64,000 bases of DNA from Bacteroidota bacterium (GCA_040384965.1 JAZKIH010000075.1:65709-129708); one strand, 5' to 3'; shown: positions 1 through 48,702, counted from the first letter of the stretch. The notes: generated by a model from the sequence alone, not told the origin. Made by a program: numbers and translations.

Positions 1-29
1 ACCAGCTTATTGTAACTAAATATAAAGAA

Positions 30-779
30 TTAATGATTCAACAATTCAGGTAGTGAAGCTTTAAAAAACAAAGGTGCGGCATTTGTCGGCAAAGCCACGC
101 TGCCCGTGTATTGCTCGTCTATATCGAAACTTGTAACATACCACGGACTGGAAATCAAGTCAGATCTGATTAATTCGTTCTCGTGTACACATTGAATTGC
201 AGCCAGGTCAGCAATTATTCCCTTCGAACAGGCCTTTAGTATAGCCTCTTTTCGCGTCCACAGTGTATAAAATGCTTTGAGCGGGACAATAGCTTGGGTA
301 ATATGGTTTATTTCTTCTTCCGTGAAGTAATGCTCCAGAATCTCTGAATAATGGAAGTCAGGGTTTACCTTTTCAATATCCACACCGAGCTCCTGATAAC
401 TAAAAGCAATTAATACCCTGTTATCTGTATGACTGAGATTAAACTTAGGACTACTTTTATGTTGAACATCAACGATTGGACGTTTATTTTGACCGCTTGT
501 AAAAACAATGCTTTCGGCCTTAGTGCCAATATATTTGCTTAGAAAAAGGCGTAGGTAAGCTCTTCTTACGATGTAGTTTTCCGTGTCTTTTTGAAAATGG
601 AATTTTCTGGCCTTAACTGCTTCTTCATCGGAAAGCATCGCTTCTAAACTTTCCAGGTAGGGCTTCGTTTCCGATACATTTATATCCCAAATATGGCATG
701 AATTCTCTAACAAAGGAATGTGCGATCCCTGCATCCACTTTGCAGCAACAGACTGAAAAGAGATTGTTGTAAAGTCCAT
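30..779 (-). CDS. Sfp-type 4'-phosphopantetheinyl transferase
   Basis: From ORF 30..815. PPTase motifs are FNLSHTDNRVLIAFS, GVDIEKV and WTRKEAILKA (W-x-x-KEA-x-x-K). The track start at 815 is TTG. The first ATG (MDFTT) is at 779 and overlaps the TAA of the upstream NRPS by 1 nt (TAATG), so 779 is preferred. Confidence 0.9.
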   Translation of the reverse strand: MDFTTISFQSVAAKWMQGSHIPLLENSCHIWDINVSETKPYLESLEAMLSDEEAVKARKFHFQKDTENYIVRRAYLRLFLSKYIGTKAESIVFTSGQNKRPIVDVQHKSSPKFNLSHTDNRVLIAFSYQELGVDIEKVNPDFHYSEILEHYFTEEEINHITQAIVPLKAFYTLWTRKEAILKACSKGIIADLAAIQCVHENELIRSDLISSPWYVTSFDIDEQYTGSVALPTNAAPLFFKASLPELLNH

Positions 780-3700
780 TACTTTGAAGAAAACCTGACA
801 GCATTGTCGAGACAAGCCTGCAGGATCTTTGCAAATTCTTTATCATTAGGCGGAGCGAAAATGTAATTGTGCTCCCCCGGTATTTCATGAATACGTACAC
901 CTTTTAATGCAAGAGGCTTCCATCCGAGGTATTCAAAATCGTCCATGTAGAACGTTTTCTTCTGGGCTCTGAAGAGTTCGATGGAGCCATTGTATGGAGT
1001 AAAAACATACTTTTCCCATGCTTGAACATTCTTAATATCAATCTTATTGGCGTAGCCAAAAAAGCCTTCCTGGTTTTGATCTTTCCCGAAACGGAATTTC
1101 CAATACAGTTGGATGAACCTCCTTTTAATCGCTTCCGTTTTATACTCGATAGTTCTTTTTGGGTCTTCTTTATATAGGGTAGCTGTGTATAGTATTTGCT
1201 TGGTCAGGTATCGTAAATTAGTATATACCTTCTTTGCGAAGCCATCGTAGCGATCTGATTGGTAAGCATAGGTATCGAACATGGCAAGCATCTTTACGTC
1301 TTTGTTCATGGCCTTCAATTGCTTTGCCATTTCAAATGCTATTATTCCTCCAAAAGAGAAGCCAGCCAGTGCATAGGGACCGCGGGGGTTCTTTTTGAGT
1401 ATTTCTGAGATGTAAAACGCAGCCATATCCTCTATTTTTTCAAGAGGTTCATCTATCCCGTTCAGGCCTTTTGCCTGTAAGCCATAAACTGGCTGTTCAG
1501 AGTCCATGTTTTTCGCCAGCGTGTTGAAGAACAAAACGTTCAGTCCCGCCCCATGTACAATATATAGAGGCATTTTATTTCCCTCGGTACGAATTGGTAC
1601 AAGCGAGTCCCACGTTATTGACTTAGAATCCATCTGGAGCATTAGCGCCAGGGACTCGACGGTGGAACTTTCAAAGAAGGAGGCCAGGGGAAGGCGTTTC
1701 CCTGTTTGTTTTTCGATGTGGGTCATTACTTGCATTGCAATTAATGAATGACCACCAAGTTCGAAAAAGTCATCATAGACGCCAACAGACTCAACGCCAA
1801 GTAATTCAGCCCAAATGTTTGCTACCATCTTCTCGAGATCTGTGCGCGGCAGCACTTTATTCATTTTTGGTATTTCAGGCTTGCCCGTTTGCGTGCCTGC
1901 TGATTGGGATTGTACGGGTAGATCCGGCTTAATTGAGCCTTCTTCTGATTGTTGCTGAACTGGGTCGCTGCCGGCCTTAACTGGTAATGCTTCAAGTAAT
2001 TCTGCAAAAGCTCCGAGAACGGAATGTTTAAATAAGCTTGTCAGCGGTAGTTTACGACCAGTTTCTTTTTCAAGGCGGATCATCACCTGAACTGCTGTAA
2101 GCGAATGTCCGCCCAGTTCAAAAAAATCATCATGTAAGCCTATATAATCGAGCTTTAGGAACTCTTTCCAAATGTCTGTAACCAGTTTTTCATTTTCTGA
2201 TGCCGGTTTTTGTCCTGAAAGCCTCCCCTGAACAATGTTGTTTGGTTTTGGCAGAGCCTTCCGGTCAATTTTTCCATTCGGTAGCGTGGGGATGGATGGT
2301 AATCCAACATATTCGCCCGGAACCATATACGCCGGTAATAATTCCTTGAGGCCTGTTTTCCAGCTTAAAACTTCTTCGGGAGTCAGAATTAGGGTTTTCC
2401 CTGATTCGCTGTGTTCATGGCTGTCAGGATTAAGAGGTACTATATACGCAACGAGGCGCTGGTCGCCGGGCCGGTTTTCATAAGCGGAAACAACGCAATT
2501 CCCTACTGCTTCTAAGCTGTTTAACGCACTTTCTATGGCGCCGAGTTCAATTCTGTATCCCCTGACTTTTACCTGATTGTCTATGCGGCCGAAACATTGA
2601 ATTTCACCGTTAGGCAAGAACTTGCCCAGATCTCCGGTACGGTATATCCGGAGAACGCCGGCATCAATTGTGGTGCTTATGAAGCTTTTTTGGGTAAGTT
2701 CTGGTTGATTCCAATACTCTCTGGCAAGGCCATCGCCGGAAATGTAGATTTCGCCAGTATTCCCTGGTAGTACAACATGCAAATCTTCATCGAGTATGAA
2801 AATTTTAGTGTTGTCGATTGGTCGTCCTACAGTAATTATTTCAGTGGAATCAGTAATCCGCTTTACGGACGACCATATAGTAGTTTCGGTTGGACCATAC
2901 ATGTTCCAGACCTGATCGCATCTCTCCAACAGCAGTTCGGCGAGATCCTGTGGAAGTGCCTCTCCTCCGCATAATGCTTTCAGGTTCAATTTGTCATCCC
3001 ACCCTGTTTCAACCATCATGCGCCATGTTGACGGAGTGGCTTGCATTACCGTAATGCGCTCATTTTTGAGCAGATCAATAATTTCTCTGCCGTCTCTCGC
3101 ATCTTCAGCATCGGCAAGAATAAGTTGAGCGCCGCTTATGAGTGGGAGATAAAGTTCCAGGCCTGAAATGTCAAAAGAGATTGTAGTAACCGCCAGGAGC
3201 TTATCTTCAGCAGATATCCCGGGTGCCTTCTGCATGCTGCACAGAAAATTGGTAAGGCTGTGATGCTCTATAGCGATTCCTTTTGGCTGGCCAGTCGACC
3301 CTGAAGTATATATGATGTATGCAAGGTCATCACCATTAATAGTTACCTGTTGCTCGATGGAAGGATAGTTAATCAGGTTTTCTGCAATTTCCTCAAAGAC
3401 GATCTCATTGATGTTTCCATTAACAAATTGGCCTTTATAGTCAGCAGATGTCAGCAGTGCTTTTGCCGCTGAATCGCTCAGCATATATTCAATACGTGTC
3501 TTTGGATATTCAGGATCAACAGGAATATATGCCGCTCCTGTTTTCATGATCGCCAAAAGGCTTATGACCATTTCCAATGAGCGATCCATTGCAATGGCTA
3601 TTCGGTCTCCGCCTCTGATTCCAAGATCAATCAAATAAGCTGCAAGTCGGTTCGTCTGCGCTTCCAGGTCGCTATATGAAACTTCTGAGTTTTTAATTTT

Positions 3701-5182
3701 GATAGCCGCCTTATCGGGATAGAGTTTAGCATTGCGGCTAACAAACTCGTGGACTGGCGTGTTAGCTGGGTAGCTGACAGTTGTTTCATTCCAGTCGGCC
3801 AGGCTTTCGGTATAGTGATTTTCGTTTCTCCCGGCCAGCTCATAAACAGAAGTCTCAGGGTCGTGTACAACAGTATGAAGCATGCTCACAAACTCTGCCA
3901 TCATTTGTTTTATCGAGTCACGCTTGAACAGTTGGGTGTTGTAAGTCCATTCCAGGACAAAGTTTTGTCCCGTATCCGTGGCGTTCACAAATATTTCAAA
4001 GTTTTCGTAATCCCTTTTATTAGAAAAAAGGCTATTCTCCATATCGTCAAACTTCACTGCATCGCCTATTCCCATATCGATACTGAACACAATCGATACT
4101 AAAGGCAAACGCGAGGGGTCACGGGAGACGTTTAGCTTCTTCAGCAGGCTTCCAAAGGTGAATAGCTGATTGTCGTACGCTTCCAGGGTGGCATTTTTAC
4201 GCGTGTTCAAATACCTGGAAAAACTGGTGTCTTCTCCGAGCCTGCTTCGAAGAGGCAGAAAGTTGATGCAATGACTCATCAGCGAGTAGTTACCGGTAGC
4301 GGCCTGCCCCGCTGTAGGAAGTCCGAGCACGATGTCGTTTTGCTTCGTTATTTTATATAGAAAAACTTCAAATACAGCCCTTAAAATAATTGCCAGACTA
4401 CATCTGGTTTTACTTGCCAGGGACTTAATATCGCCTAGCAGGCCGGCGTCCATCACGATATCGTATCTCTCACTTTTTGTTGTTCGGATCGCGGGTCGTA
4501 CTCCATCCAGAGGAAGCTCCAGAATAGGAATAGAATCCTTAAACTCGTTGAGCCAAAAGCGTTCTATCTGTTTGTAATCGTCTGATTGGGTAAAGGTTTG
4601 TTGCTTGTGAGCGTATTCCTGAAACGAAACGGGTTCATCAAGAGTGCTCGTTTGTCCTTTAATACAGGTTGTATAATTACTTCCAAGTTCTTCAAGAAAC
4701 AATCCCATTGACCAGCCATCGCAAACAAGATGGTGTATCGTGAAAACAAGAATATGTTTTTCATTTTCGATGCGGAATAGGGAAAGCTGATATAGCGGCC
4801 CGTTAAGCAGATCGAAAACGACATTAATCTGGGTACGGATGTAGTTATCTAAAGCAGAATCCTTTTGTACAGGTGCAAGTGATGAAAGATCTTCAAAATG
4901 CATTTGCAGTACCCCATCACTTTCTATCCGAACCTGTGCGCCGTCTTCGGTGAACGTTGATCTTAGAGCTTCATGACGGTTAATCTCTTCCTGTAGACAT
5001 TTTTCAAGGCATGATTGGTCGAGATTTCCGGTGAGCGTTAATGATACGGATAGATTATAAGCGCGGTTAGCATTGTCTCCGCCAACTATGCATGATATCC
5101 ATACTTCCTGTTGCGCCTCTGTCGCTGGAGCAAATGATATTTTTGTCTTGTCTGTTATGCTGCTGTCTGAGAGAGAACGCAT
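779..5182 (-). CDS. NRPS termination module, C-A-T-T-TE
   Basis: 1467 aa. C domain has HHLVCDGWS. A-domain cores are LAYIIYTSGSTGQPKG, FDISGLE, NMYGPTETT, YRTGDLG, GRIDNQVKVRGYRIEL and PNGKIDRKAL. There are two carrier domains: FFELGGHSLTA (Ser codon 2102..2104) and FFELGGHSLIA (Ser codon 1745..1747). The thioesterase has GFSFGG (Ser codon 1355..1357) and a C-terminal GEH. Confidence 0.95.
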   Translation of the reverse strand: MRSLSDSSITDKTKISFAPATEAQQEVWISCIVGGDNANRAYNLSVSLTLTGNLDQSCLEKCLQEEINRHEALRSTFTEDGAQVRIESDGVLQMHFEDLSSLAPVQKDSALDNYIRTQINVVFDLLNGPLYQLSLFRIENEKHILVFTIHHLVCDGWSMGLFLEELGSNYTTCIKGQTSTLDEPVSFQEYAHKQQTFTQSDDYKQIERFWLNEFKDSIPILELPLDGVRPAIRTTKSERYDIVMDAGLLGDIKSLASKTRCSLAIILRAVFEVFLYKITKQNDIVLGLPTAGQAATGNYSLMSHCINFLPLRSRLGEDTSFSRYLNTRKNATLEAYDNQLFTFGSLLKKLNVSRDPSRLPLVSIVFSIDMGIGDAVKFDDMENSLFSNKRDYENFEIFVNATDTGQNFVLEWTYNTQLFKRDSIKQMMAEFVSMLHTVVHDPETSVYELAGRNENHYTESLADWNETTVSYPANTPVHEFVSRNAKLYPDKAAIKIKNSEVSYSDLEAQTNRLAAYLIDLGIRGGDRIAIAMDRSLEMVISLLAIMKTGAAYIPVDPEYPKTRIEYMLSDSAAKALLTSADYKGQFVNGNINEIVFEEIAENLINYPSIEQQVTINGDDLAYIIYTSGSTGQPKGIAIEHHSLTNFLCSMQKAPGISAEDKLLAVTTISFDISGLELYLPLISGAQLILADAEDARDGREIIDLLKNERITVMQATPSTWRMMVETGWDDKLNLKALCGGEALPQDLAELLLERCDQVWNMYGPTETTIWSSVKRITDSTEIITVGRPIDNTKIFILDEDLHVVLPGNTGEIYISGDGLAREYWNQPELTQKSFISTTIDAGVLRIYRTGDLGKFLPNGEIQCFGRIDNQVKVRGYRIELGAIESALNSLEAVGNCVVSAYENRPGDQRLVAYIVPLNPDSHEHSESGKTLILTPEEVLSWKTGLKELLPAYMVPGEYVGLPSIPTLPNGKIDRKALPKPNNIVQGRLSGQKPASENEKLVTDIWKEFLKLDYIGLHDDFFELGGHSLTAVQVMIRLEKETGRKLPLTSLFKHSVLGAFAELLEALPVKAGSDPVQQQSEEGSIKPDLPVQSQSAGTQTGKPEIPKMNKVLPRTDLEKMVANIWAELLGVESVGVYDDFFELGGHSLIAMQVMTHIEKQTGKRLPLASFFESSTVESLALMLQMDSKSITWDSLVPIRTEGNKMPLYIVHGAGLNVLFFNTLAKNMDSEQPVYGLQAKGLNGIDEPLEKIEDMAAFYISEILKKNPRGPYALAGFSFGGIIAFEMAKQLKAMNKDVKMLAMFDTYAYQSDRYDGFAKKVYTNLRYLTKQILYTATLYKEDPKRTIEYKTEAIKRRFIQLYWKFRFGKDQNQEGFFGYANKIDIKNVQAWEKYVFTPYNGSIELFRAQKKTFYMDDFEYLGWKPLALKGVRIHEIPGEHNYIFAPPNDKEFAKILQACLDNAVRFSSK

Positions 5183-5185
5183 TAA

Positions 5186-8100
5186 TTAGTGCTTCGTATA
5201 TAACTGAGCAAACTGCTCTAAAATTGAATATTTAAATAATGTAGTTAATGGCAGGCGAACGCCGGTTTCTTTTTCCATCCGTATCATCACCTGTACTGCC
5301 AGCAGCGAATGCCCGCCTAACTCAAAAAAATCTGCATTGAGATTTAACGTTTTTAAACTCAATACATCTCCCCATACTCTGGCCACCCGCTTTTCGATTT
5401 CCGTTCCCGGCAAATTATCTGTATTGTCAGAAAAGCCTTTATCCTGAGGTTTAGGCAGCTTATTTATGTCAATCTTGCCATTAGGAAGCAAAGGCATTTT
5501 ACTAACCCTCACGAACTCGGAAGGGATCGTGTATGCAGGAAGAAATTCTTTAAGACGTTGTTTCCATTCCATTTCTTGCTCACTGCTGAAATCCCCTTCG
5601 TTACCAGATGGGTTTCTCGCATACTCGTAAATATCAGTATTAAGATTTGTAAACTCAACAGGTTGAGGGATTTTATCACCGAGAGCTTGCGGTATGAAGA
5701 TAGCGTCGAATAGCCCGTCTGCGCCGTCGCTTGACCAGCGAATGTGTGTGTTAAAACCTTTGTTTTTTCCGAGATTCCACAATGACTGAGGATCTTGTCC
5801 GTTTGTCACCTGGTGAAGTGCCGCCTTAACTTTACTTACTGTCGGATTTTCGACCTCATTTTGAATAACTTCCTGGAGCCGGTGATCGACTGAAGTTCGG
5901 GTATTAAAAACGTTCGTAATTGAAATAACCTTTGATAGGTTTTTGTCAATTATTGTCGAAATATCGTCGATAGTTGAAGCTGGGAGCCATGGTATTTCTA
6001 CTTCTGCCGCAGCAGACATAGATGGACCATTGACAAAGAGCCATATATCGTAATGATATTTAGTAGTTTCATTCAAATGGCTGCCTTCCCGTAGCTGTAT
6101 ATTCACTGAGGTAATTGCGGGAATAACCTGTGGAAGCAGATAGAAAAACCCCGGGTCTGCAACTAATTCATCTTCAACTCTAACTCGTCGCTCAACTATT
6201 TTTTTGAATTCGGTAGTTAGCTGCTGATCGTCACTGCGGTTTAGCTGATCCAGGGCATGATACATAGACAGTGTATTCTTGCCCTGCATGTCACCAATAA
6301 AGATGCAGCCGCCATCTTTTAATGCTTTAGATGACTCCCGGAGAACTTTCAGCAGATACTCTGCATCCGGGAAATATTGTACGACGCCGTTTATTATAAT
6401 TAAATCGAGAGAGTGGGGTTCAACAATGCTCAGGTCATCTGCCGGAGCAGCCAATGCTGTCACGTTTCTAAACTTTTCCGGTTCGGCATCAAGTTTTTCC
6501 TGCAGTTTACTGATCGCTGTTTCAGAGTAATCAGTAGCTACAAACTTCTCAGTTAAAGGTGCAATCTCGAACACTAGCTGCCCCGCACCACAGCCTAATT
6601 CCATCGTGTTCTTTGTGACTAGTATTTTAATACGGTCTACCGATTGTTTAAGCCATTCTTCAACTTCTCCTTTAATATCCTGGCGTCCGCTTATTTGCTG
6701 AGCTACTGCAATATCCAATTGCCTTTCACCAACGGTAAGGAGATTTTCTGCAACAGCGCCTCTTTGATAAAGATCTTCCCATCTTTCCTGCCATGTAGGA
6801 TGGGAGTTTGTGGCAACATATTCAGGAACTATAAAGGCAACAAGCCGCATGTCTCCAGCTGCATTTTCTTTCGGAACAACGATCGCCTCCTTTACTTCAT
6901 CATTTTGATTAAGGAAATGTTCAATCGCAGATAACTCAATCCGGTGGCCTCTGATCTTTATCTGATTATCTATCCGGCCCAGGTAAACGATTTCACCCGA
7001 TCCTGTGAATTTGCCCAGGTCTCCTGTCCGGTAAATTGTCTGGTGCTTGTTGTCCAAAAAAACATCAGTTATAAAATTACCGGCTGTTAATGCTGGTTGA
7101 TTAAGATATCCCCTTGCAAGGCCTTCACCCGCTATATAAATCTGGCCTTCGAGCCCCGGCATTACAGGATGTAGGTTCTCGTCCAGGATATAAATGCTTG
7201 TATTATTTATAGGCCTGCCTATAGTAATCGCCTCACCCTTTACACTAATATTCTTGATGGACGACCAGATGGTTGTTTCGGTAGGCCCGTACATGTTCCA
7301 AACTTCGTGAGTAAGGTCAATAAGTTTATTAGCAAGATCCGATGACAGTGCTTCCCCGCCGCAAAGCGCTTTTATCTCAACTGGTGTATTCCAGCCGGCA
7401 TCAATCATCATTTTCCATGTAGATGGAGTAGCCTGCATGATACTTATCTGGTGTGATTTTATCATATCCATCAAAATCCGTCCATCTTTAACAGCTTCTT
7501 TATCTGCAATGATTACTTCTGCGCCGCTAATTAGGGGCAGAAACAACTCCAGCCCGGCAATGTCGAACGAAATTGTGGTAACGGCGAGCAGGCGATCACT
7601 ACTTGTGATGCCGGGCGACGTTTGCATGCTGTGTAAAAAATTAACAACGTTGTGATGTTCCAGCAGCGTGCCTTTAGGTTTTCCGGCAGATCCGGAGGTA
7701 TAAATTATATACGCAAGATCTGAGCCGCCAACCGGTACAATTGGGTTAGTATCCGGGTATGTTGGCAGTTTCGCTCCTATTTCCTCAAGAATAATCTCCG
7801 GAATCTGTGAGTTAAACCGGCCTTTATAATGTGTCTGTGTTATCAGGATCTTTGCAGAAGAATCAGACAGCATATACTCAATGCTTTTTTGGGGATAGAG
7901 CGGATCAATAGGTACATATGATGCCCCGCATTTAAGGATGGCTAATAAGGCTATAAGCATTTCCGCTGAACGGTCAACCGCCAGCGCAACCCTATCATCT
8001 TTTTCTATGCCATAGGTCAGCAGATGCCTCGATAGCTGGTTAGCTCGTGCATTAAGTTGATGGTATGTGAAGTAGGTGTCGTTGAAAGTTACGGCCTTAC

Positions 8101-9592
8101 TGTGTGGATATTCAGCTGCTGTCTGCTCAATAAGGGAGTGAATGGATGCCTCCTTTGGATAGTAGGCGTCGGTGTTATTTTGAATTCTCTGTGATTTGGC
8201 AAAGGTGTCTGACGGTTGCAGTCGGATTTGACCAATCTTTATCTGCGGATTTTCGACTATAGCTCTGAGTAGAGATTCGAAATCGTCCATCATTCTTTTT
8301 ATCGTACTCTCTTCAAACAGATATGTATTATATGACCACTCCAGAGTCAAAGAATTGTTGGAACCGCTGGCATTTAAGAATATCTCGAAATTTTCAAACT
8401 CGCGTTTATTAATTACGAGAGTGTGCTCAAGATCTTTAAACTTAACGCCATCATCCAGGCCAATGTCAATATTGAAAACTATTGGGATTAACGGTATCCT
8501 TGAAGCATCACGTACCGCGCCCATCTTCTTCAATAGACTGCCGAAGGTAACCTGTTGGTTTTCGTAAGCGTCGAAAATTGAGCTCTTGCGTAACTTTAGA
8601 AAGTTAACAAAAGTTGACTCTTGGTCGTGTTTGCTTCTTACCGGGAGCATATTTACACAATGTCCCACTAAGCCGTAAATATTATCAGCAGCCTGTCCCG
8701 CTGAGGGGATTCCAAGCACAATATCCTTCTGCCCCGAGATTTTATGTAGAAATACTTCGAAAGCAACGATCATAGTAGTTATGAACGTACAGCCAGCCTG
8801 AGACCCTACTTCCCGAATTCCATTTATCAGTGTTTTGTCTAGCTTATAGTCGTCTCTCCGGCTTATGTAAGTCCTGGTTTCCGGTCTGATATGGTCGGTG
8901 GGAATATCCATAACCGGAACATCATCCTTGAACTGTTCTAACCAATAACCCTCTATACGCTGATATTCCGGACTGTCATGGAAAATCTTCTGTTCCGCAG
9001 CGTAATCAGAGAATGAAGGAGCGGGATCAAGTGCTGCTAAATGTCCATCGATAAAAAATGAATAAGCTTTTGCGAGTTCCTGCATAATAACTCCGATCGA
9101 CCAGCCATCGCATATAATATGATGTGCAGAAAGGGTGAGGTGGTGGCGATCATCGGCCTGCTTAAATAAATTAACGCGGAAAAGCGGCCCAGTTTCCAGA
9201 TTAAACGCGGTGCGAGCGTCGTTTTTAAGAAAGTCTGTTATAATGTGTGCTTGCTCATCGTTTAAACGAATACTAATATCTTGATAAGTGAAAGACAGAA
9301 CACCTTCTTTGAAGATGCATAATTGCTTACCGTTTGCACTGAATCCCGACCGTAGGGCTTCATGCCTCTGAATTATATAGCTTAGGGCTTTTTCAAGTGC
9401 CGCATGTTTAAGACTGCCTGTGAGTTCGAGAGAAACTGATTCGTTGTAAGAGCGGTTTGCGTCCTCGCCGCCCAACACGCAGGCCGCCCAAATTTCAATC
9501 TGGGATTCTAATGCAGGTACAACCTTATCAATTTCGGGACCTGCAAAAGGGTCAAATTCGATTGGCCGTAAGCTATAGTCCTTCTCTGTCAC
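5186..9592 (-). CDS. NRPS elongation module, C-A-T with a methyltransferase inserted in the A domain
   Basis: 1468 aa. C domain has HHIICDGWS. A-domain cores are LAYIIYTSGSAGKPKG, FDIAGLE, NMYGPTETT and GRIDNQIKIRGHRIEL. A ~400-aa insert follows, carrying SAM motif I ELGCGAGQLVFE (about nt 6575..6600). Cores A9/A10 then resume (LPAYTIPSEF, PNGKIDINKL). The T domain is FFELGGHSLLA (Ser codon 5306..5308). The start is GTG at 9592, overlapping the upstream TGA (GTGA). Confidence 0.95.
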   Translation of the reverse strand: MTEKDYSLRPIEFDPFAGPEIDKVVPALESQIEIWAACVLGGEDANRSYNESVSLELTGSLKHAALEKALSYIIQRHEALRSGFSANGKQLCIFKEGVLSFTYQDISIRLNDEQAHIITDFLKNDARTAFNLETGPLFRVNLFKQADDRHHLTLSAHHIICDGWSIGVIMQELAKAYSFFIDGHLAALDPAPSFSDYAAEQKIFHDSPEYQRIEGYWLEQFKDDVPVMDIPTDHIRPETRTYISRRDDYKLDKTLINGIREVGSQAGCTFITTMIVAFEVFLHKISGQKDIVLGIPSAGQAADNIYGLVGHCVNMLPVRSKHDQESTFVNFLKLRKSSIFDAYENQQVTFGSLLKKMGAVRDASRIPLIPIVFNIDIGLDDGVKFKDLEHTLVINKREFENFEIFLNASGSNNSLTLEWSYNTYLFEESTIKRMMDDFESLLRAIVENPQIKIGQIRLQPSDTFAKSQRIQNNTDAYYPKEASIHSLIEQTAAEYPHSKAVTFNDTYFTYHQLNARANQLSRHLLTYGIEKDDRVALAVDRSAEMLIALLAILKCGASYVPIDPLYPQKSIEYMLSDSSAKILITQTHYKGRFNSQIPEIILEEIGAKLPTYPDTNPIVPVGGSDLAYIIYTSGSAGKPKGTLLEHHNVVNFLHSMQTSPGITSSDRLLAVTTISFDIAGLELFLPLISGAEVIIADKEAVKDGRILMDMIKSHQISIMQATPSTWKMMIDAGWNTPVEIKALCGGEALSSDLANKLIDLTHEVWNMYGPTETTIWSSIKNISVKGEAITIGRPINNTSIYILDENLHPVMPGLEGQIYIAGEGLARGYLNQPALTAGNFITDVFLDNKHQTIYRTGDLGKFTGSGEIVYLGRIDNQIKIRGHRIELSAIEHFLNQNDEVKEAIVVPKENAAGDMRLVAFIVPEYVATNSHPTWQERWEDLYQRGAVAENLLTVGERQLDIAVAQQISGRQDIKGEVEEWLKQSVDRIKILVTKNTMELGCGAGQLVFEIAPLTEKFVATDYSETAISKLQEKLDAEPEKFRNVTALAAPADDLSIVEPHSLDLIIINGVVQYFPDAEYLLKVLRESSKALKDGGCIFIGDMQGKNTLSMYHALDQLNRSDDQQLTTEFKKIVERRVRVEDELVADPGFFYLLPQVIPAITSVNIQLREGSHLNETTKYHYDIWLFVNGPSMSAAAEVEIPWLPASTIDDISTIIDKNLSKVISITNVFNTRTSVDHRLQEVIQNEVENPTVSKVKAALHQVTNGQDPQSLWNLGKNKGFNTHIRWSSDGADGLFDAIFIPQALGDKIPQPVEFTNLNTDIYEYARNPSGNEGDFSSEQEMEWKQRLKEFLPAYTIPSEFVRVSKMPLLPNGKIDINKLPKPQDKGFSDNTDNLPGTEIEKRVARVWGDVLSLKTLNLNADFFELGGHSLLAVQVMIRMEKETGVRLPLTTLFKYSILEQFAQLYTKH

Positions 9593-12500
9593 TGGTCTTC
9601 GTTATAGGTTACTTGTAAATATTTTCCGGGGTTATCCAGATCGGCAATAAACCATGCCGGATTTCCATCCTTGTCTCTTCCTAACCTGGCACCTTCAACG
9701 GGAGGAGTATTGACAGTTTCAAGATTAACAAAATTAACCGATTTGTCAATAATGGGATGTAAAAATCCTGCGTCAATCATTTCAATCAGGCTCTCTTTGA
9801 ACTTGTCTGAGATCTGCGTCAGTTCATCAAGGGTATGGCTTTCGGTCGTGAAACATGGAAAGCCGTCCACGATATGGATTCCCTTATATCTCATTAAGGT
9901 GAATAATAGCTCGCTGTATGGAATGTCTTCTTCGAATTTGATTTTCCACATCGATCCGAACCCTACGATGTTAATCGCCATTCGCAGCTCCCTGCACGTC
10001 TGGCTCATCGTGTTTATCAAATAAGATGTCTTCTCATTTAGTTCTTTTTGAAGGGCGGGCCCGCGGCTTTTAAAATACTCCAGGGAAGCTTTGGCAGCTG
10101 CAAGTGCTAAAGGATGCCGGACGAATGTGCCCGCGAAATAAGTTACACCGGCTTCAGGTACTGACGAGTCTCCGAATTGCCATAAGCCTCCGTCAAGAGC
10201 ATCCATAAATTCCTTTCTTCCCGCTATTACCCCGATTGGCAAACCTCCGCCTATCACTTTGCCATAAGATGCGAGGTCGGCTTTAATCCCGAATAATGCT
10301 TGCGCTCCACCGGGGTGCATTCTAAAACCTGTGATAACTTCATCGAATATTAATACTGTACCAGAATCTGTCGTTAATTGACGGACCGCTTTCAGGAAGT
10401 CGATTGGCTGAAATTCTGGCCTTCGGCTTTGTACCGGTTCAACTAATACCGCGGCGATTTCTTCTGCCCGATCGGCAATTATTTTGAGAGTGTCGTCCGT
10501 GCCGTAATCAAGAATAAGCATGTTTTGAACAGCTTCAGGCATAATACCGGGGGCTGCCGGAATAGTTCGGAAAGTTTTAGTGCCCCGAACTATTACTTCA
10601 TCAAATATTCCATGGTAGGATCCAGAGAATGCGACAATTAATGATCTTCCGGTAACGGTCCTCGCTATCCGCATCGTTCCCAGTACAGCTTCTGATCCGG
10701 TACTGCAAAGTGCTGCACGGTCGAAACCAGTAAATTCGCAAACTAGTTTACAAACCTCCCCCGCAAGTTCATGCTGTGGCCCAATTTCGTAGCCGATCTC
10801 GATCTGATTCTTTATAGCTTCTACTAAGAAATCTGGTTGAAATCCAAGCATGTTTGAACCAAATCCATTTAATGCATCGATATATTCATTACCATCGATG
10901 TCCCAAATCCTGCTTCCTTTCGATCGTCTGGCTACTATCGGATAAACCAGTTCTTTAGTTAACGGCCTGAATCCTGATACGACCCTCGGGTCCGCCATGT
11001 GAGTCCTGTTCTTCTGTGTGTACTCTTTACTGGCTTTTGTCTTTTTATTAAAGTCGTCAGTTAATGACTTAATAAACCTGGATTGAGCTGGCGTTAAACC
11101 AGAGCTGGTCATGTCTATTTTGGGACTTGCGCCGAAGGGTTTTATTGCCCCAGATATTTCCGATTGTTTAAAATTCCGATCGTTGGCGTCATTGATAATA
11201 GTAGACGTTATTGTCTTTAACGATTTGCGACTTGTGAAACTGCTTTCATCCTGTAGGATATCTGGAGTCAACCCCGCATTAATATAATCCGCCAATAGGT
11301 TTACTGTGTTCAAATTTTCATTAAGCTGTCTGAAGCTTATTGGCAAAAATTCTTTTCTTAACGTAATGGCGAGCTGAGTTAGGAGCAATGAATCCATGCC
11401 TATCTCAATAAAGCTGTAATTAATGTCAGTATCATCCAGATTAATACCGGATGAAGACTCAATTATAGCCCTGATCCTTGTAATCAATGTTGATTTTCTG
11501 GAGAGTGTCTCAGCACCTTCTGTTAACTCAGGAAGTTCTGTGATGTGTTCGGATCGGGGAATTACCGGGGCGGTTGAATTTATTAAAGCGGGTTCTACCC
11601 AATATCTTTTTTTGTCGAATGCATAAGCAGGCAATTCGATCTTTCTGCCCATTGCATTTAGCGACTTCCAATCTGGAATAATTCCTGCCTGCCATAATTT
11701 TCCCATAGACTGCAGGGCAGACATGTATTCAGAGCTTCGGCTTTGTTGTTTTTCAAACCCCGGAACTGAAGTAAGTGATTTTCCCCGCGCAAATTGTTTA
11801 GCAAATATAGTAGCAGAATTTCCTGGGCCTACTTCAAGCAAAACTCTCAATGGATCTTCCCATAACGATTGAACTGCATCATAAAATCTAACCGGCTGCC
11901 GGAGCTGATCAGCCCAATAGTCAACGCTCATTGCTTCGAACTCCGACATCCATTTTCCTGTCACTGTAGAAACAATTGGCAGACGAGGGGGACTTAACTT
12001 AATTGACAATAAAAAGGTTTTGAAGTCGGCTTTAATATCGTCCATCATAGACGAATGAAAGGCATGGCTCGTTTTAAGTAGTTTGTTTGCAACTCCGCTC
12101 CCAGTAAGTTCCTTTGAAAAAGTTGCGACAGAAGTCGTTGGTCCTGAGACAACCGAAAGATCGGAGGTATTATAAGCGGCTATACTTAATGACGAAGGCA
12201 AGATCTTCGCAAGTTCAAATGTTGGCATTTTTACAGATAACATACTCCCGCCAGGGAGCCTGCTGATGAGCCTTGCCCGTTTCGAGACAACTTTTAAAAC
12301 ATCTTCCAGGGAAAATATGCCAGCAAAATGTGCTGCCACAAATTCGCCGATACTATGGCCTGCTACAGCCGATGGGTTTATGCCCCAGCTCATCCAAAGC
12401 TTTGCCATAGCATATTCGGTGACAAACAATGCGGGCTGTGTGTATCGGGTATTTTGAAGGTTTGCTTCTGCTGGACTTTCTTCATCCGAAGGATAAAGGA

Positions 12501-15500
12501 TATCCCTGATATCGGCTTCTAAATAAGGCAATAATATATTTGCACAGGTCTCAATAGCATCTTTAAAGACCGGATGTAAGTCATAAAAAGATCTTCCCAT
12601 GTTAAGATATTGCGAACCTTGTCCGGGGAAGATAAACGCAGTTTCCGAAGCAGCTTCCGAAAATACTTTTGGGAGACCGGCGGATCGATTTTTCAGCTTA
12701 TCAAGAAGATCATTTATATCGTGTGCAACTACGAATTGCCTGAGTGGAAAATCTTTTCTGGTGCGCTGAAGTGTCGCCGCTAAATCTGCAAGGTCAACCG
12801 AGGGATTTTGTTTTACATACTCTTCCAGCTTTCGCTGATACTCGTTCAGACTGTATTCTGTCTTTGCTGACCATAATATAAGCTGAGGACTGCTTGTTCT
12901 CCCAGTTGAAGGCCGGGTTTCCGGGAACTCTTCGAGGATAACATGTACGTTTGTTCCGCCTACACCAAACGAGCTTACACCTGCGCGCCTTGTGCCAGAC
13001 GAATCCCATTTTTTCAGTCGGGAGTTAACATAGAAGGGGCCGTTTTGAAAATCGATATTGGGGTTAGCATTCTCGTAAAAAAGTGAAGGCGGGAGTTGCT
13101 TGTGATATAATGACATCGTTGTCTTGATGAAGCCGGCAATTCCTGCTGCATGTGTGAGGTGTCCGATATTGCTTTTTATCGATCCTATAGCACAGAATTG
13201 CTTACTTTGCGGCAGTCCGAAAGCGAGCTTCAAACCTTCAATTTCGATAGGATCGCCTAGTGGAGTAGCCGTTCCGTGGGCCTCAATATAACTTAAAGAA
13301 GAAGCTTCTATTCCAGCATCGTCCATAGCCATAGTAATTGCTCCTGCTTGTCCTTCGGGATCGGGTGCGGTAAAACTCGCTTTTCCAGCTCCATCATTAT
13401 TGAGACCAACTCCTTTGAGTATTGCGAATATTGTATCGCCATCACGTTCAGCAGATTCCCGTGTTTTAAGAACTACAACTCCTGCGCCGTCGCTGAAAAC
13501 GGTGCCGGTTGCATGTGCATCAAAAGGCCTGCAATGTCCATCTCTGCTGAGCATCGCACCTTCTTCATATACATGTCCGCTATTTACAGGGACCGTGATG
13601 GATATACCGCCAGCTAATGCAACATCACATTGCCCTTTTCTAAGACTTTCGGCTGCCTGAGCAACAGCCAGCAGTGAAGTCGAACATGCAGAATAAACGC
13701 TTACTGCCGGTCCCTTTAGATTTAACTCGTATGCGGTACGCATAGATATATAGTCCTTTTCGTTCAGCGTTGATACCTGAAAGCTGCCCGCACGTTCTAT
13801 GAGTTCCTGGCGCGTATGTACATTATTTAAATAGTAGGTATTTGATCCGCTGCCAGCGAAAACGCCAATTCTTCCATCATATTTATCGGGCAGATGACCA
13901 GATTGTTCAAGTGCTTCCCATGCGATCTCAAGAAAAATACGCTGCTGCGGATCCATGAGTTCAGCGAGTAAGGGTGGGATTCCAAAGAAGGCAGCGTCAA
14001 ATTTGTCGACATTACTTACAATGCCCCGGGCTTTTACATATTCGGGATTGTTTATTACATGATCAGGCAGACTTGCGTCCAATTCCTCGTCGCTGAAGAA
14101 TTTGGTCGTTTCACGGCCAGAAATCAGTATCTGCCATAGTTCAGCTACAGTATCTGCCCCAGGAAATCTCCCGGCCATACCTACAACTGCAAGATCTTTG
14201 CTTAACGATGGTTTTTTGCTCTTTTTTTCTGATTTAATCTCCTCCTTCCCGGATAAAGTGAGGGACAACTGTTTAATATATGGGTATTGGTAAAGGCGTG
14301 TAACAGGGAGAGATAATTTATGTTCGTTCAATAGCACAGAAACAAAACGAAGTGCCAGCAGTGAATTACCCCCCAAATCAAAGAAATTATCGTTGATCCC
14401 AATTTTATCGATTTGGAGAAGAGAGCTCCAGATGGACGATAAAAGCTTCTCCATTGGTGATACCGGAGCTTTGAAGAGCACGTTCAAATCCGGGCGTGCA
14501 GTTCCTGGTTCTGGCAGCGCATTACGGTCAATTTTACCATTCTCGCTCAACGGTACTTTATCAATTTCAAGTAAATGATCGGGAACCATGTAATCAGGAA
14601 GCTGCAGGTTCAAATATGCGCGAAGATTGGCTTTATCGAATTGACTTGATGAACTGACGATATAGCCCACCAACTTTTTCATTCCATCCGCGGCTCCTTT
14701 TGCGACTACAACACACTGCGCTACCCCCTCGTACTGAAGGATTGTATTTTCTATTTCACCAAGTTCTATCCGGAACCCCCGGATTTTTACCTGATCGTCT
14801 GAACGGCCAAGATATTCCAGATTTCCACTCGGATGCCACTTTGCCAGGTCACCTGTTCGATAAAGTCGATTGTGTTCGCTGTTCGTGAAAGGATTTAGCA
14901 AGAATCTATAGCTATCCAGTTCCGGACGGTTTAAATAACCTCTTGCAACCTGGCACCCGCCAATGTAAAGTTCGCCCGAAATTCCTGTTTCGCAGGGATT
15001 CATGTGCTCGTCAAGAACATACAAACTAGTGTTTGCAATAGGCTTACCTATAAAAATTTTCTCGGGTTGCTCAGGCACATCATAGCAGCTAACGTCTATG
15101 GCGGCCTCGGTAGGGCCATATAGGTTGTGAAGTGAGACGTGCGGAAGCTTTTCGCGGAAGCTATTGGCTTGTTTAAGTGTAAGTTCTTCGCCGCTGCAGA
15201 GCACTCTTTTTAACCCCGGACATGAGTTTGTTTCTATCTCTTGAAGGAACATTTCCAGCATTGATGGCACAAAATGAATTGTTGTGACTTTTTGTTCATC
15301 AATAACATTTTGTAAGTAAACTGGATCTTTTTGCCCCCCAGGTTTTGCCATCATAACCGTGCAGCCGACCATCAAAGGCCAAAGAAGTTCCCACACCGAA
15401 ACATCAAAGCAGATTGTGGTTTTTTGAAGTATAACATCTCCGGCTTGTAAGTGAAAGTGACTTTGCGCCCATTTCAGCCTGTTGGCTAATGCATAGTGCT

Positions 15501-16074
15501 CGGTTAAAACCCCCTTAGGCTTGCCCGTGGAGCCGGAAGTATAAATTACGTAAGCAAGGTCGTGAGATTGTATGCGTGGAAGTGATAAAGCAGGTGCCGG
15601 AACTTGTTCCCACTCCTCATCAACAACGACAGAATTTAGTCCGCTAATTCTGGAGAGTGGCTCGTTTATTTTACCGATAGTTGAACTATTTGTAAGGACG
15701 ATTTTTACTCCGGCATCATTCAGCATGAATACAATGCGGTCAGCCGGGTAATCGGGATCTATAGGTAGATACGCCCCTCCGGCCTTAAGCGTAGCAAGAA
15801 TAGATACCATCATTTCGATAGATCTGTCCAGACAAATACCTATAATTTCTTCTTTAGACAGGCCTTTTGATAGTAGATATGCTGCTAGTTGATTCGATTT
15901 AACTTCAAGCTGTGAATAGGTTAAGCTTTCGAGTTCAGTTATGACAGCCACCTTATCTGGAAATAGTTTGGCTTGGTTAGAGAATTCAGAAGGAAACATT
16001 TCCGCGTTTGCGAAGGTTATTTCAGTATTGTTAAACGTATAAAGGACTTTCTCGTTTTCTTCAGGATGTGGCAT
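9589..16074 (-). CDS. Hybrid NRPS-PKS loading/extension protein, A-T-KS-AT-ACP-aminotransferase
   Basis: 2161 aa. A domain: LAYVIYTSGSTGKPKG, FDVSVWE, NLYGPTEAA, YRTGDLAKW, NGKIDRNAL. T domain: FFDLGGNSLLA (Ser571, nt 14362..14364). KS: C-H-H triad VYSACSTS (Cys797, nt 13684..13686), EAHGTATPLGDP, SNIGH. AT: GHSIGE (Ser1241, nt 12352..12354) and HAFH. ACP: IGMDSLL (Ser1562, nt 11389..11391). C-terminal class-III PLP aminotransferase: GFGSNMLGFQP, FDEVITGFR, SYGKVIGGG (Lys1939, nt 10258..10260). Confidence 0.95.
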   Translation of the reverse strand: MPHPEENEKVLYTFNNTEITFANAEMFPSEFSNQAKLFPDKVAVITELESLTYSQLEVKSNQLAAYLLSKGLSKEEIIGICLDRSIEMMVSILATLKAGGAYLPIDPDYPADRIVFMLNDAGVKIVLTNSSTIGKINEPLSRISGLNSVVVDEEWEQVPAPALSLPRIQSHDLAYVIYTSGSTGKPKGVLTEHYALANRLKWAQSHFHLQAGDVILQKTTICFDVSVWELLWPLMVGCTVMMAKPGGQKDPVYLQNVIDEQKVTTIHFVPSMLEMFLQEIETNSCPGLKRVLCSGEELTLKQANSFREKLPHVSLHNLYGPTEAAIDVSCYDVPEQPEKIFIGKPIANTSLYVLDEHMNPCETGISGELYIGGCQVARGYLNRPELDSYRFLLNPFTNSEHNRLYRTGDLAKWHPSGNLEYLGRSDDQVKIRGFRIELGEIENTILQYEGVAQCVVVAKGAADGMKKLVGYIVSSSSQFDKANLRAYLNLQLPDYMVPDHLLEIDKVPLSENGKIDRNALPEPGTARPDLNVLFKAPVSPMEKLLSSIWSSLLQIDKIGINDNFFDLGGNSLLALRFVSVLLNEHKLSLPVTRLYQYPYIKQLSLTLSGKEEIKSEKKSKKPSLSKDLAVVGMAGRFPGADTVAELWQILISGRETTKFFSDEELDASLPDHVINNPEYVKARGIVSNVDKFDAAFFGIPPLLAELMDPQQRIFLEIAWEALEQSGHLPDKYDGRIGVFAGSGSNTYYLNNVHTRQELIERAGSFQVSTLNEKDYISMRTAYELNLKGPAVSVYSACSTSLLAVAQAAESLRKGQCDVALAGGISITVPVNSGHVYEEGAMLSRDGHCRPFDAHATGTVFSDGAGVVVLKTRESAERDGDTIFAILKGVGLNNDGAGKASFTAPDPEGQAGAITMAMDDAGIEASSLSYIEAHGTATPLGDPIEIEGLKLAFGLPQSKQFCAIGSIKSNIGHLTHAAGIAGFIKTTMSLYHKQLPPSLFYENANPNIDFQNGPFYVNSRLKKWDSSGTRRAGVSSFGVGGTNVHVILEEFPETRPSTGRTSSPQLILWSAKTEYSLNEYQRKLEEYVKQNPSVDLADLAATLQRTRKDFPLRQFVVAHDINDLLDKLKNRSAGLPKVFSEAASETAFIFPGQGSQYLNMGRSFYDLHPVFKDAIETCANILLPYLEADIRDILYPSDEESPAEANLQNTRYTQPALFVTEYAMAKLWMSWGINPSAVAGHSIGEFVAAHFAGIFSLEDVLKVVSKRARLISRLPGGSMLSVKMPTFELAKILPSSLSIAAYNTSDLSVVSGPTTSVATFSKELTGSGVANKLLKTSHAFHSSMMDDIKADFKTFLLSIKLSPPRLPIVSTVTGKWMSEFEAMSVDYWADQLRQPVRFYDAVQSLWEDPLRVLLEVGPGNSATIFAKQFARGKSLTSVPGFEKQQSRSSEYMSALQSMGKLWQAGIIPDWKSLNAMGRKIELPAYAFDKKRYWVEPALINSTAPVIPRSEHITELPELTEGAETLSRKSTLITRIRAIIESSSGINLDDTDINYSFIEIGMDSLLLTQLAITLRKEFLPISFRQLNENLNTVNLLADYINAGLTPDILQDESSFTSRKSLKTITSTIINDANDRNFKQSEISGAIKPFGASPKIDMTSSGLTPAQSRFIKSLTDDFNKKTKASKEYTQKNRTHMADPRVVSGFRPLTKELVYPIVARRSKGSRIWDIDGNEYIDALNGFGSNMLGFQPDFLVEAIKNQIEIGYEIGPQHELAGEVCKLVCEFTGFDRAALCSTGSEAVLGTMRIARTVTGRSLIVAFSGSYHGIFDEVIVRGTKTFRTIPAAPGIMPEAVQNMLILDYGTDDTLKIIADRAEEIAAVLVEPVQSRRPEFQPIDFLKAVRQLTTDSGTVLIFDEVITGFRMHPGGAQALFGIKADLASYGKVIGGGLPIGVIAGRKEFMDALDGGLWQFGDSSVPEAGVTYFAGTFVRHPLALAAAKASLEYFKSRGPALQKELNEKTSYLINTMSQTCRELRMAINIVGFGSMWKIKFEEDIPYSELLFTLMRYKGIHIVDGFPCFTTESHTLDELTQISDKFKESLIEMIDAGFLHPIIDKSVNFVNLETVNTPPVEGARLGRDKDGNPAWFIADLDNPGKYLQVTYNEDQ

Positions 16075-16187: not shown

Positions 16188-17357
16188 TTACGTTTTTCGA
16201 CGAGCTTTATCCCACACTGAACTTTGTTCGCCACTGAAGTATTTTTCTATTCCAACAAGAATTGCATAGTTCATTACGCAGAAATAATATGGGATAAATA
16301 ATATCTTGATGCGTAGATGTTTTTCCTCAAGTATCCAGCCAAGTATCGCCAGGAAGTAAAATGTCAATTGCCCTAGTAGCAAAAACATATATATTGGACT
16401 GATTGGGTTAATTGCCAGAGGAATATTTAATATCAACACGATTATCAGAAGAAATGGTGTTATTGTCCAGCGAAATACGCGGTGACTAATGTATTGGAAA
16501 CTGAGAACACCATATCGGAATATGTTTAGTAAGTGAGCCAGCCGGACGATCGATTGTATGCCACCTGCAGCTATTCTTGTTTTACGTTTTAATTCTTCAG
16601 CAATATTTTCAGAAGCAGATTCTAAGGCGAACGCTTCAGGTTCATACTTTATCTTATAGCCCATTGCAGCCACTTGCATGGAAATCATAAAGTCGTCCAG
16701 AACCGTGTCGGAAGGCACCTCATGGTAAAGTTCACGGCGTACACTGAACAGCTCGCCGGCAGCGCCTACTGTTGAATATAATTCAGAGTCCCACTTTTTT
16801 AATGCTGACTCATATCGCCAATAAAAGCCTTCGCCTGCGGTGTTCGCATCGGAAAGCTCATCTACATAGATGCGTTTTTCTCCAGCAACCGCGCCTACAT
16901 CCGAATCTGAATAATGCTTAGCAATATTGATAAGGGCAGTTAAATTCAGATATGTATTCGCATCCGAAAAAGTTATGATCTCTGAAGAGCTATTCGTAAT
17001 AGCCCTGTGCATTGCTGCCGCCTTGCCCCGTCGCGGATGATCATGCATTAATTTTATCTGCGGATACTCGGCGACAATTTCTGGTGTTTTGTCGTCAGAG
17101 CCATCCGTAATGATAATTATTTCTAGCTTCCTCGGATCGTATTCCAGCGCCAAAGTATTTAAAATCTTGTCGCGAATAAATGATTCTTCATTATATGCCG
17201 CAATAATAAGTGTGCAGGACGGCCGTTCTGTAACACTTAGGGCTGGATTAGGAGCTTTTAGCAACCGTTTAATCCTAATAAGGATATAAAGGATGATACC
17301 ATATCCAATAAACGTATAGAAAATTATAAAGAGCCCCAGCCAGAAAGTTATAACCAT
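16188..17357 (-). CDS. Membrane-integrated family 2 glycosyltransferase
   Basis: 389 aa with an ATG start. It has an N-terminal TM helix, a GT-A core (IIAAYNEE, ITDGSDD, FSDAN, GAAGELFSVRR) and a C-terminal bundle of TM helices. It lies 113 nt upstream of the NRPS-PKS gene on the same strand. Confidence 0.8.
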   Translation of the reverse strand: MVITFWLGLFIIFYTFIGYGIILYILIRIKRLLKAPNPALSVTERPSCTLIIAAYNEESFIRDKILNTLALEYDPRKLEIIIITDGSDDKTPEIVAEYPQIKLMHDHPRRGKAAAMHRAITNSSSEIITFSDANTYLNLTALINIAKHYSDSDVGAVAGEKRIYVDELSDANTAGEGFYWRYESALKKWDSELYSTVGAAGELFSVRRELYHEVPSDTVLDDFMISMQVAAMGYKIKYEPEAFALESASENIAEELKRKTRIAAGGIQSIVRLAHLLNIFRYGVLSFQYISHRVFRWTITPFLLIIVLILNIPLAINPISPIYMFLLLGQLTFYFLAILGWILEEKHLRIKILFIPYYFCVMNYAILVGIEKYFSGEQSSVWDKARRKT

Positions 17358-17409
17358 TTCAAGTTCTAATATCTAAAGGTTATCCAAAAACCAAACACGC
17401 AGACGCCGT

Positions 17410-18309
17410 TCACCGATTCAGGCTATCTTTCTGATGAGTGATGTTCCACCAAATCCCTTTGAAAAATGCTTTAGCCAGGTCAATCCTGTTTGCGGCTAAA
17501 TATCTGTATAAATTTCTGGGTAAAACAAGAGTATAAAAGTACAAATGGAAAATAATTACGGTTAGAGGAGTAGCATTTCTTCGAATAAAGAGGATTCTGT
17601 TACGAGTCATAAAATATTCCTTCATGGGACTATTTTGACCAGTGGAAAGTGATTCTTTGTGGTAAATCACAGCACTTGGGTCAATCCAGATTTCATAACC
17701 GTACTTTTTTATGCTCTCGCACCATTCCATTTCCTCATAGTACAAAAAGTAATTTTCGGGCATAGACCCAGCTTTTTCTATTGCACTTCGCCGCAACATC
17801 ATTGCTGCTCCATGTGCAAATTCAGTTCGATAGGATGTTGAACCATATTGACCGTAATCAGTTTCAAGCTGCCCGATACATTTATTACGTCCGGTGTAAA
17901 AATTCATTTTTGTAAAGCCCGCATATTGAATAGTATTCTGCTGAGCGTAGTATATGATCTTTGGACAGACAATTCCTGCCAGGGGCTTACTTTCTAATAA
18001 TGCAATTAGTTTTTCAATCAGTCCGGCCGTAAACTCCGTGTCATTGTTAACGAAGAACAAGTAGTCGCCGCTTGCTTTTTCAACGCCCAGATTATTGCCG
18101 CCAGCGAAACCCAGGTTTTTTTCTGAACGGATGTAAGTTACCTCCGGAAATTCAAATGACAGTTCTTTGGTCGCGTTAGTAATGCTTCCATTATCAACTA
18201 CGATTATCTCCGCATCGCCATATTGTTTGAGCAAATCTATCGATCGCAAAAGCTCCAGCGTGGCTTGCGGTTGGTTGAAATTTACCGTGATGATTGAAAG
18301 TTTTTTCAA
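17410..18309 (-). CDS. Family 2 glycosyltransferase (soluble, rhamnosyl/WbbL-like architecture)
   Basis: 299 aa. Motifs are LSIITVNFNQ, VVDNGS and FFVNNDT (DxD-like). The start codon at 18309 is TTG, and there is no in-frame ATG near the N-terminus. Confidence 0.8.
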   Translation of the reverse strand: MKKLSIITVNFNQPQATLELLRSIDLLKQYGDAEIIVVDNGSITNATKELSFEFPEVTYIRSEKNLGFAGGNNLGVEKASGDYLFFVNNDTEFTAGLIEKLIALLESKPLAGIVCPKIIYYAQQNTIQYAGFTKMNFYTGRNKCIGQLETDYGQYGSTSYRTEFAHGAAMMLRRSAIEKAGSMPENYFLYYEEMEWCESIKKYGYEIWIDPSAVIYHKESLSTGQNSPMKEYFMTRNRILFIRRNATPLTVIIFHLYFYTLVLPRNLYRYLAANRIDLAKAFFKGIWWNITHQKDSLNR

Positions 18310-30404: not shown

Positions 30405-30415
30405 TCTGATCTGTA

Positions 30416-34407: not shown

Positions 34408-34448
34408 CGTAAGTTCTAAGCGTGGACTAGACGATTTATGTTTGAAAG

Positions 34449-35258: not shown

Positions 35259-35261
35259 AAT

Positions 35262-36083: not shown

Positions 36084-36103
36084 TATAGTGCGATTTAATT
36101 TCT

Positions 36104-38475: not shown

Positions 38476-38479
38476 ATTA

Positions 38480-39382: not shown

Positions 39383-39435
39383 CAAATACAAGGTCTTAAA
39401 ATGGGGACTTTCACAATGAGTGCAGTAATTGTAAA

Positions 39436-40320: not shown

Positions 40321-40415
40321 TCGTCTGTCAAAGCTAGTTTAACTGATGTTTAAAGATAATTATATAAAATAGATGCAGCATATGTTTTAAATGGAATTGT
40401 ATAAAGACTTTCAGA

Positions 40416-42253: not shown

Positions 42254-42256
42254 TTG

Positions 42257-43732: not shown

Positions 43733-43875
43733 TTTATATTGGGTTACGCTCTAGAAAAAAAGAATTTTAAAAAAGAAGAAAAAAACACTTAAAAAGGCGA
43801 TTATGATCGCGACTTTCCTGGTCATAAATTGAATGTTTTCTTCTGTAGTTTTGACCTGTTTTGTACTATTTGTTC

Positions 43876-44613: not shown

Positions 44614-44619
44614 CAACTG

Positions 44620-45810: not shown

Positions 45811-45811
45811 G

Positions 45812-48013: not shown

Positions 48014-48015
48014 TG

Positions 48016-48699: not shown

Positions 48700-48702
48700 A
48701 GT

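Follow-up and report, generated by a model that had tools for sequence, protein, structure and literature searches.

The first gene of a three-gene NRPS-PKS cluster from a Bacteroidota bacterium encodes, after an amino-acid-type loading domain and a single polyketide extension, an in-line class-III aminotransferase (AMT) domain of the MycA type, and we consider it likely that this gene is the loading and first-extension module of an assembly line that would turn serine and malonate into a vicinal diamine. The cluster lies at one end of the window, the whole stretch of 64,000 nucleotides that was analyzed, and all of its genes and domains described below are on the minus strand. Gene 1 (9589..16074) specifies 2161 amino acids and is read, from its ORF, its translation and the order of its Pfam matches, as A-T-KS-AT-ACP-AMT-tail. 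The loading adenylation domain (residues 31-514; 14533..15984) comprises a Pfam AMP-binding match at residues 31-381 and the corresponding C-terminal subdomain at 440-514, and is followed by a peptidyl carrier domain with a PP-binding match (residues 545-604; 14263..14442), a ketosynthase in which the Cys motif and both His motifs are present (residues 627-998; 13081..14196) and an acyltransferase with a GHSIG serine and an HAFH motif (residues 1147-1446; 11737..12636). In a second PP-binding stretch, the motif GMDSL at residues 1559-1563 places the phosphopantetheine attachment site at Ser 1562 (codon at 11389..11391), and this carrier is predicted to present the beta-ketoacyl chain to the AMT domain (residues 1661-2105; 9760..11094). 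Pfam scanning of the 2161 residues detected no KR, adh_short or other reductive domain in gene 1, and no N-terminal C, formyltransferase or acyl-ligase domain.

Several comparisons bear on the identity of the AMT. The Aminotran_3 family (PF00202) matches residues 1711-2087 with 161.6 bits, against a cut-off of 30.5. Among solved structures in the PDB, the best matches are those of the MycA AMT (6KFM, 6KFR and 6KFU), which align over the full length of residues 1661-2105 with an E-value of 3e-121, far below chance expectation, and 408.7 bits, whereas the best HemL structure reaches 180 bits (E-value 8e-52). A monomer model of the domain generated with AlphaFold from 46 homologues, which is of moderate confidence only (mean pLDDT 70), was compared with known structures using Foldseek, and 6KFU, the ACP-AMT fusion of MycA, and 6KFM ranked first, with an E-value of 1.5e-36 versus 1.2e-23 for HemL. 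The sequence also speaks against the domain being a HemL, as the HemL models of NCBIfam remain under their curated cut-offs (NF000818, 262 versus 398; TIGR00713, 246 versus 527) and the same genome encodes a separate HemL on another contig (G000:C67:9000-9932); BioA does not appear among the best 25 NCBIfam matches of the AMT. Relative to the genome's own HemL, the AMT carries an insertion of 11-12 residues, at approximately residues 1964-1975, just past the PLP lysine region. Aminotran_3 domains embedded in NRPS/PKS lines have been described as carrying about 12-14 inserted residues that HemL lacks (PMC3870968), and the same source summarizes the MycA AMT as an enzyme that aminates an ACP-bound beta-ketothioester with glutamine as the donor. 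Lysine 1939 (codon at 10258..10260), the putative Schiff-base lysine for PLP, aligns with the YGK lysine of both MycA and the genome's HemL, and, like aspartate 1911, the predicted partner of the pyridine nitrogen of the cofactor, it is invariant in 241/241 homologues. At the level of sequence and modeled fold, these data confirm the domain as a MycA-type in-line PKS aminotransferase, closer to MycA than to the free-standing class-III enzymes.

The preliminary description of this DNA had proposed an in-line class-III aminotransferase that terminates the module, sits directly after an ACP and is accompanied by no KR. The type of domain, its place near the end of gene 1 and the lack of a KR are confirmed by the Pfam order and by the match to the MycA AMT. 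The domain does follow the ACP, but not directly, with about 55 linker residues between the ACP and the first AMT helix; nor is it the very end of the protein, as it stops at about residue 2105 and is followed by a conserved tail of 56 residues. The coordinates given for the domain, 9745..11082, correspond to residues 1665-2110, and the five motifs quoted for it were all recovered (residues 1694-1704, 1711-1733, 1737-1747, 1910-1918 and 1936-1944; 10243..10995 of the window). Loss of the PLP-lysine context in an alignment had been named as grounds for rejecting the assignment; in the alignment of 241 homologues the context is kept throughout, and the assignment stands.

The likeness to MycA, and by extension to ItuA/BmyA of the iturin family, extends over the fold, an end-to-end alignment in which about half of the aligned residues are identical by eye, the YGK lysine context and the insertion relative to HemL, and includes the placement of the AMT after KS-AT-ACP, with no KR, and ahead of a C domain that accepts a beta-amino acyl chain. 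The two systems differ in what precedes and what follows. In MycA the priming enzyme is a fatty acyl-AMP ligase, whereas gene 1 begins with an NRPS-type A domain that has a serine code and its own carrier, and the new amine would therefore be placed beside an existing one; the MycA AMT continues in the same polypeptide into the following C domain, whereas that of gene 1 ends the polypeptide with what is predicted to be a docking tail. Having a serine-code A domain instead of the FAAL priming and long-chain beta-amino fatty acid that define subunit A of the iturin family, gene 1 falls outside that class. In-line transamination of a beta-keto intermediate before peptide bond formation is also carried out by McyE/NdaF, in microcystin and nodularin synthesis, and by the KS-AT-ACP-AMT-C cassettes of cyanobacterial and myxobacterial lipopeptides; the chains in these systems are, however, long polyketides or fatty acids. 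Statine-type modules (A-T-KS-AT-KR-ACP) extend an amino acid with malonate and reduce the ketone, and gene 1 has an AMT in place of the KR, with an amine predicted instead of a hydroxyl. The chemical precedent for the predicted step is BioA, the 7,8-diaminopelargonate synthase of biotin synthesis, a class-III aminotransferase that converts an alpha-aminoketone to a vicinal diamine, but BioA is free-standing, its substrate is a free acid and its amino donor is SAM.

The substrates can be predicted from the loading and acyltransferase domains. When aligned to gene 1's own motifs, the ten-residue pocket code of the A domain reads DVWHLSLIDK, which is serine-type and agrees at all ten positions with the canonical serine code. 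The best PDB matches of the pocket region are Txo1/Txo2, FscH and EntF, and of the 9 pocket positions that the alignment with the serine-activating EntF covers, 7 have identical residues; the entire A-T region places LgrA on top, a ranking that is uninformative on specificity, for which the pocket region alone is useful. The HAFH motif marks the acyltransferase as malonyl-type. The serine starter, as a predicted specificity, and the malonyl extender that had been proposed earlier are both supported by these motifs. Because the A pocket is serine-type and the acyltransferase malonyl-type, a 3,4-diamino-5-hydroxypentanoyl unit, also put forward in the preliminary description, is the most likely outcome once the AMT is taken into account. 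The A domain would load L-serine onto the first carrier, the ketosynthase would condense it with malonyl-ACP to yield 4-amino-5-hydroxy-3-oxopentanoyl-ACP, and the AMT, acting in the manner of MycA, would take the amino group of a free donor and place it on C3, resulting in 3,4-diamino-5-hydroxypentanoyl-ACP. Transamination of the ACP-bound beta-ketone as in MycA is, in our judgment, probable. We infer which substrates are used, that a transamination takes place, what donates the amine and what becomes of the product, and the same applies to whether the amine derived from serine stays free. A free gamma-amino thioester could cyclize to a lactam before hand-over, and the formyltransferase domains present in some relatives point to a possible need to mask the amine of the starter.

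Hand-over of the aminated chain would take place between two polypeptides. The 56-residue tail of gene 1 (residues 2106-2161; 9592..9759), a predicted docking element, lies outside the aminotransferase fold and is modeled as three short strands (pLDDT 76-84). All 121 split forms, those in which the AMT ends the polypeptide, have the core motif of the tail, versus 7/120 forms with a fused C domain. The predicted partner lies at the N-terminus of gene 2, a motif (residues 5-25; 9518..9580) with the core FDPFxGPE that is located ahead of the C domain and is invariant in 5/5 partner proteins from five loci; a fused Spirosoma protein is colinear with the tail joined to the N-terminus of gene 2. When the tail was modeled together with the first 470 residues of gene 2, the complex obtained a score of 0.81, versus 0.00 for the best control; in a benchmark the score mark was reached by 58/80 solved complexes and 2/110 mismatched pairs, counts that hold only roughly here, as the complex was predicted with alignments of our own. 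The model runs have at least 65% of their contacts in common, with a partner pLDDT of at least 66, and the contacts connect tail residues 22-59 with residues 5-25 (5-18 and 20-25) and 85-92 of gene 2. The modeling supports a docking pair, in which the conserved tail that follows the AMT would dock on the motif at the N-terminus of gene 2. The TGA that ends gene 1 shares bases with the GTG at which gene 2 starts, and the order of AMT and then C domain is realized across two overlapping genes, colinear with the fused relatives. That the next gene opens with a C domain, as had been noted, is borne out by the intact C domain of gene 2 and is in line with the overlap and the docking model. A Mucilaginibacter partner C-domain protein has the FDPF motif twice at its N-terminus (L010:16599-16750).

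The downstream part of the cluster consists of gene 2 (5186..9592), with the organization C-A(MT)-T, and gene 3 (779..5182), with the organization C-A-T-T-TE, both read from the ORFs, Pfam matches and pocket codes, followed by a gene for an Sfp-type phosphopantetheinyl transferase recognized by Pfam (30..815), a type of gene that adjoins the synthetase in 35/57 related loci. The A domains of genes 2 and 3 share the code DILQLGMIWK, which is glycine-type. The C domain of gene 2 would join the diamino acid to glycine, probably N-methylated by the embedded methyltransferase, and gene 3 would add a second glycine before its thioesterase frees the chain. The sequence of events predicted from this domain order begins with serine, malonate and amination, continues with a glycine at the module that has an embedded methyltransferase, and ends with a second glycine and the thioesterase. 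The product could be a small peptide, free or cyclized, or could be attached as a unit to a sugar polymer that comes from the neighboring GT2 enzymes described below. Just beyond position 1 of the window, the phosphopantetheinyl transferase gene is followed by a Cupin_8 (JmjC-like) gene (L009:14860-15708, minus strand), homologues of which are found beside the synthetase in the loci L013, L011 and G303 and in 6/57 related loci; it may encode a tailoring hydroxylase.

Proteins with the architecture of gene 1 number in the thousands when metagenomic sequences are included, with AMT regions 67-82% identical to that of the window, and the matches listed in the protein search are uncharacterized relatives that all score above 525 bits. 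The relatives belong to Daejeonella, Mucilaginibacter, Pedobacter, Spirosoma, Dyadobacter, Hymenobacter, Larkinella and Puia, and longer fused forms extend to Myxococcota, Lysobacter and relatives within Burkholderiales. When each species was represented by one genome in a scan, the family was present on at least 585 contigs, mainly from Bacteroidota. In an even sample of the phylum, the AMT has a match in 14/401 genomes, about 8 of them close, including 3/7 genomes in the window's own family, and it is therefore an accessory trait; the gene was not found in the one other species of the window's genus within this 401-genome sample. The G+C content of the NRPS-PKS genes (1..16000 of the window) is 42-45%, versus 36-39% in much of the rest (for example 34000..52000), and this contrast, together with the absence from the sampled congener, fits an acquired accessory cluster.

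The usual core of these loci is gene 1 with a single C-A-T-TE gene and a phosphopantetheinyl transferase, and the clade of the window has the extra C-A(MT)-T gene. The starter codes are varied (proline-like, valine-like, serine, glycine, threonine and others), with proline-like codes forming the largest group, and the AMT remains 62-78% identical across the family while starter specificity changes repeatedly. A FastTree phylogeny covering 116 AMT domains shows a minimum of 9 switches between starter classes, versus about 38 with shuffled labels, and the AMT of the window falls in a well-supported clade with 15 serine and 4 glycine starters. In the closest relative (L012:16464-19652), the AMT region of which is 82% identical, the middle gene encodes 1062 amino acids with a C domain, a methyltransferase and a carrier, but with no AMP-binding match, and looks like a module that lacks an A domain. 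Among the long relatives P0209, P0219, P0238, P0240 and P0218, some have formyltransferase domains beside the AMT in one polypeptide, and one has sulfotransferase and luciferase-like monooxygenase domains. In a Daejeonella MAG, the GT2 pair and a serine-primed gene 1 are separated by genes for an arylsulfotransferase, a sulfotransferase and an APS kinase (L013:6307-9843), which hints at a sulfated product there.

Directly upstream of gene 1, and on its strand, the window encodes a pair of GT2 glycosyltransferases (16188..18309) identified by Pfam and NCBIfam, a 389-residue, membrane-bound, synthase-like protein with a distant resemblance to PgaC/NodC-type synthases and a soluble protein of 299 residues. 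The two closest loci likewise have the pair beside the synthetase, and among the 57 related loci with full flanks it occurs within 10 kb of the AMT in 20-23 (approximately 40%). Other related loci hold Bac_transf, Wzy, flippase, GT8 and Cupin_8 genes, and in one protein (P0202), encoded within a glycan locus, a generic GT2 domain is fused to the N-terminus of the synthetase. The link between AMT synthetases and sugar-polymer genes is real as an association, and the GT2 proteins are not exclusive to AMT carriers. Orthologues of the 389-residue GT2 are present in 48/401 genomes of the phylum sample, versus 14 with the AMT, and in 2/5 AMT-carrying genomes the GT2 sits on another contig, so that it does not serve as a strict co-marker. 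The fused GT2 domain of P0202 was also considered as an orthologue of the soluble GT2 of the window and rejected, being only 29% identical to it over 183 residues, and the idea that the pair acts on the serine hydroxyl is weakened by its occurrence with proline-like, threonine-type and other starter codes. A phylum-wide cassette in which short peptides are built on a beta,gamma-diamino acid, with a side chain that is often exchanged from species to species, and in which the synthase-like GT2 pair leads to a glycosylated or glycan-bound product, a glycoconjugate that is secreted or held at the surface and not a free antibiotic, is a speculative reading that we hold only tentatively. If it were true, the glycosylated or glycan-bound diamino-peptide would represent an undescribed class of glycoconjugate. 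That a GT2 pair is so often nearby, and that starter specificity has changed repeatedly, suggests a cell-surface role or species-specific signaling.

How the AMT of the window acts could be read in other ways. The nearest solved relatives after MycA are the glutamate-1-semialdehyde aminomutases, and the predicted substrate is an alpha-aminoketone, the type of motif that HemL isomerizes through a vicinal diamine. By analogy, the AMT might swap the serine-derived amine and the ketone via a bound diamine, with 3-amino-5-hydroxy-4-oxopentanoyl-ACP as the outcome, no external donor and no net gain of nitrogen. HemL does share with the AMT the class-III fold, the PLP lysine and aspartate, and a chemistry on adjacent amino and oxo carbons, but it lacks the 11-12-residue insertion. 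We regard such a mutase as very improbable, given that the closest characterized relative by a wide margin is the MycA AMT, a true transaminase, and that in the largest group of the family the starters are proline-like while the AMT is still about 70% identical; as the ring nitrogen of a proline-like starter is barred from reacting with PLP as a primary amine, the mutase cycle would not be the chemistry of the family at large. Silent domains do occur in assembly lines, and the AMT could in principle be one of them, a scaffold or dimerization element past which the chain travels as a beta-keto or enol species. In 241 relatives from several phyla, with changing starters, 105 positions are at least 98% conserved, as are the lysine for PLP and the aspartate for the cofactor. 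This is the pattern expected of an active enzyme, and we give this possibility almost no credence.

A less distant alternative accepts a genuine beta-ketoacyl transaminase and differs in the unit, which would not be the free serine-derived diamine, either because another starter is used or because the amine or the hydroxyl is modified in trans by acylation, glycosylation or sulfation. The pocket code is, after all, a prediction, some relatives include formyltransferase or sulfotransferase domains within one polypeptide, sulfotransferases and an APS kinase are neighbors of gene 1 in the closest Daejeonella-type locus, and the GT2 pair is a frequent neighbor. Against this, the canonical serine code is matched at every position and EntF shares most of the pocket positions aligned, gene 1 itself has no N-terminal C, formyltransferase or acyl-ligase domain, and no sulfotransferase was found in the cluster of the window. 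We therefore consider a masked or different starter unlikely, while according it some weight, and retain MycA-like amination of a serine-primed beta-ketone as the preferred explanation.

Fatty or polyketide chains are the substrates of the in-line beta-amination known from the iturins and microcystins. The domain itself is of a known kind; what appears to be new is that it follows an amino-acid primer and should in this way produce a vicinal diamine, together with the terminal docking tail and the genomic company, and the window offers what reads as a serine-primed, three-gene form of the family. Placed after amino-acid primers, such AMT domains should yield beta,gamma-diamino acids. A literature search found no publication on the amino-acid-primed KS-AT-ACP-AMT family or its product, and no report of a beta,gamma-diamino acid as a building block of any characterized assembly line; PMC9248904 contains no description of the family or its product. 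The family is large and conserved, with its carriers on hundreds of species-level contigs, and several cultured strains of Pedobacter, Mucilaginibacter and Spirosoma are among them, which makes the family amenable to direct testing.

Two further gene sets lie elsewhere in the window. Four adjacent genes on the plus strand (29505..33042) encode a UbiA-type prenyltransferase, an FAD_binding_4 oxidase, a short-chain dehydrogenase and an HAD phosphatase, a combination that resembles the mycobacterial pathway for the decaprenyl-phosphoryl-arabinose donor; in Bacteroidota such a pathway would be unusual. A surface-polysaccharide locus on the minus strand (34449..41630), at a distance of about 18 kb from the synthetase, encodes a DUF268 methyltransferase, a GT11, a Wzx-type flippase, a GT2, a GT8 and a GT1.
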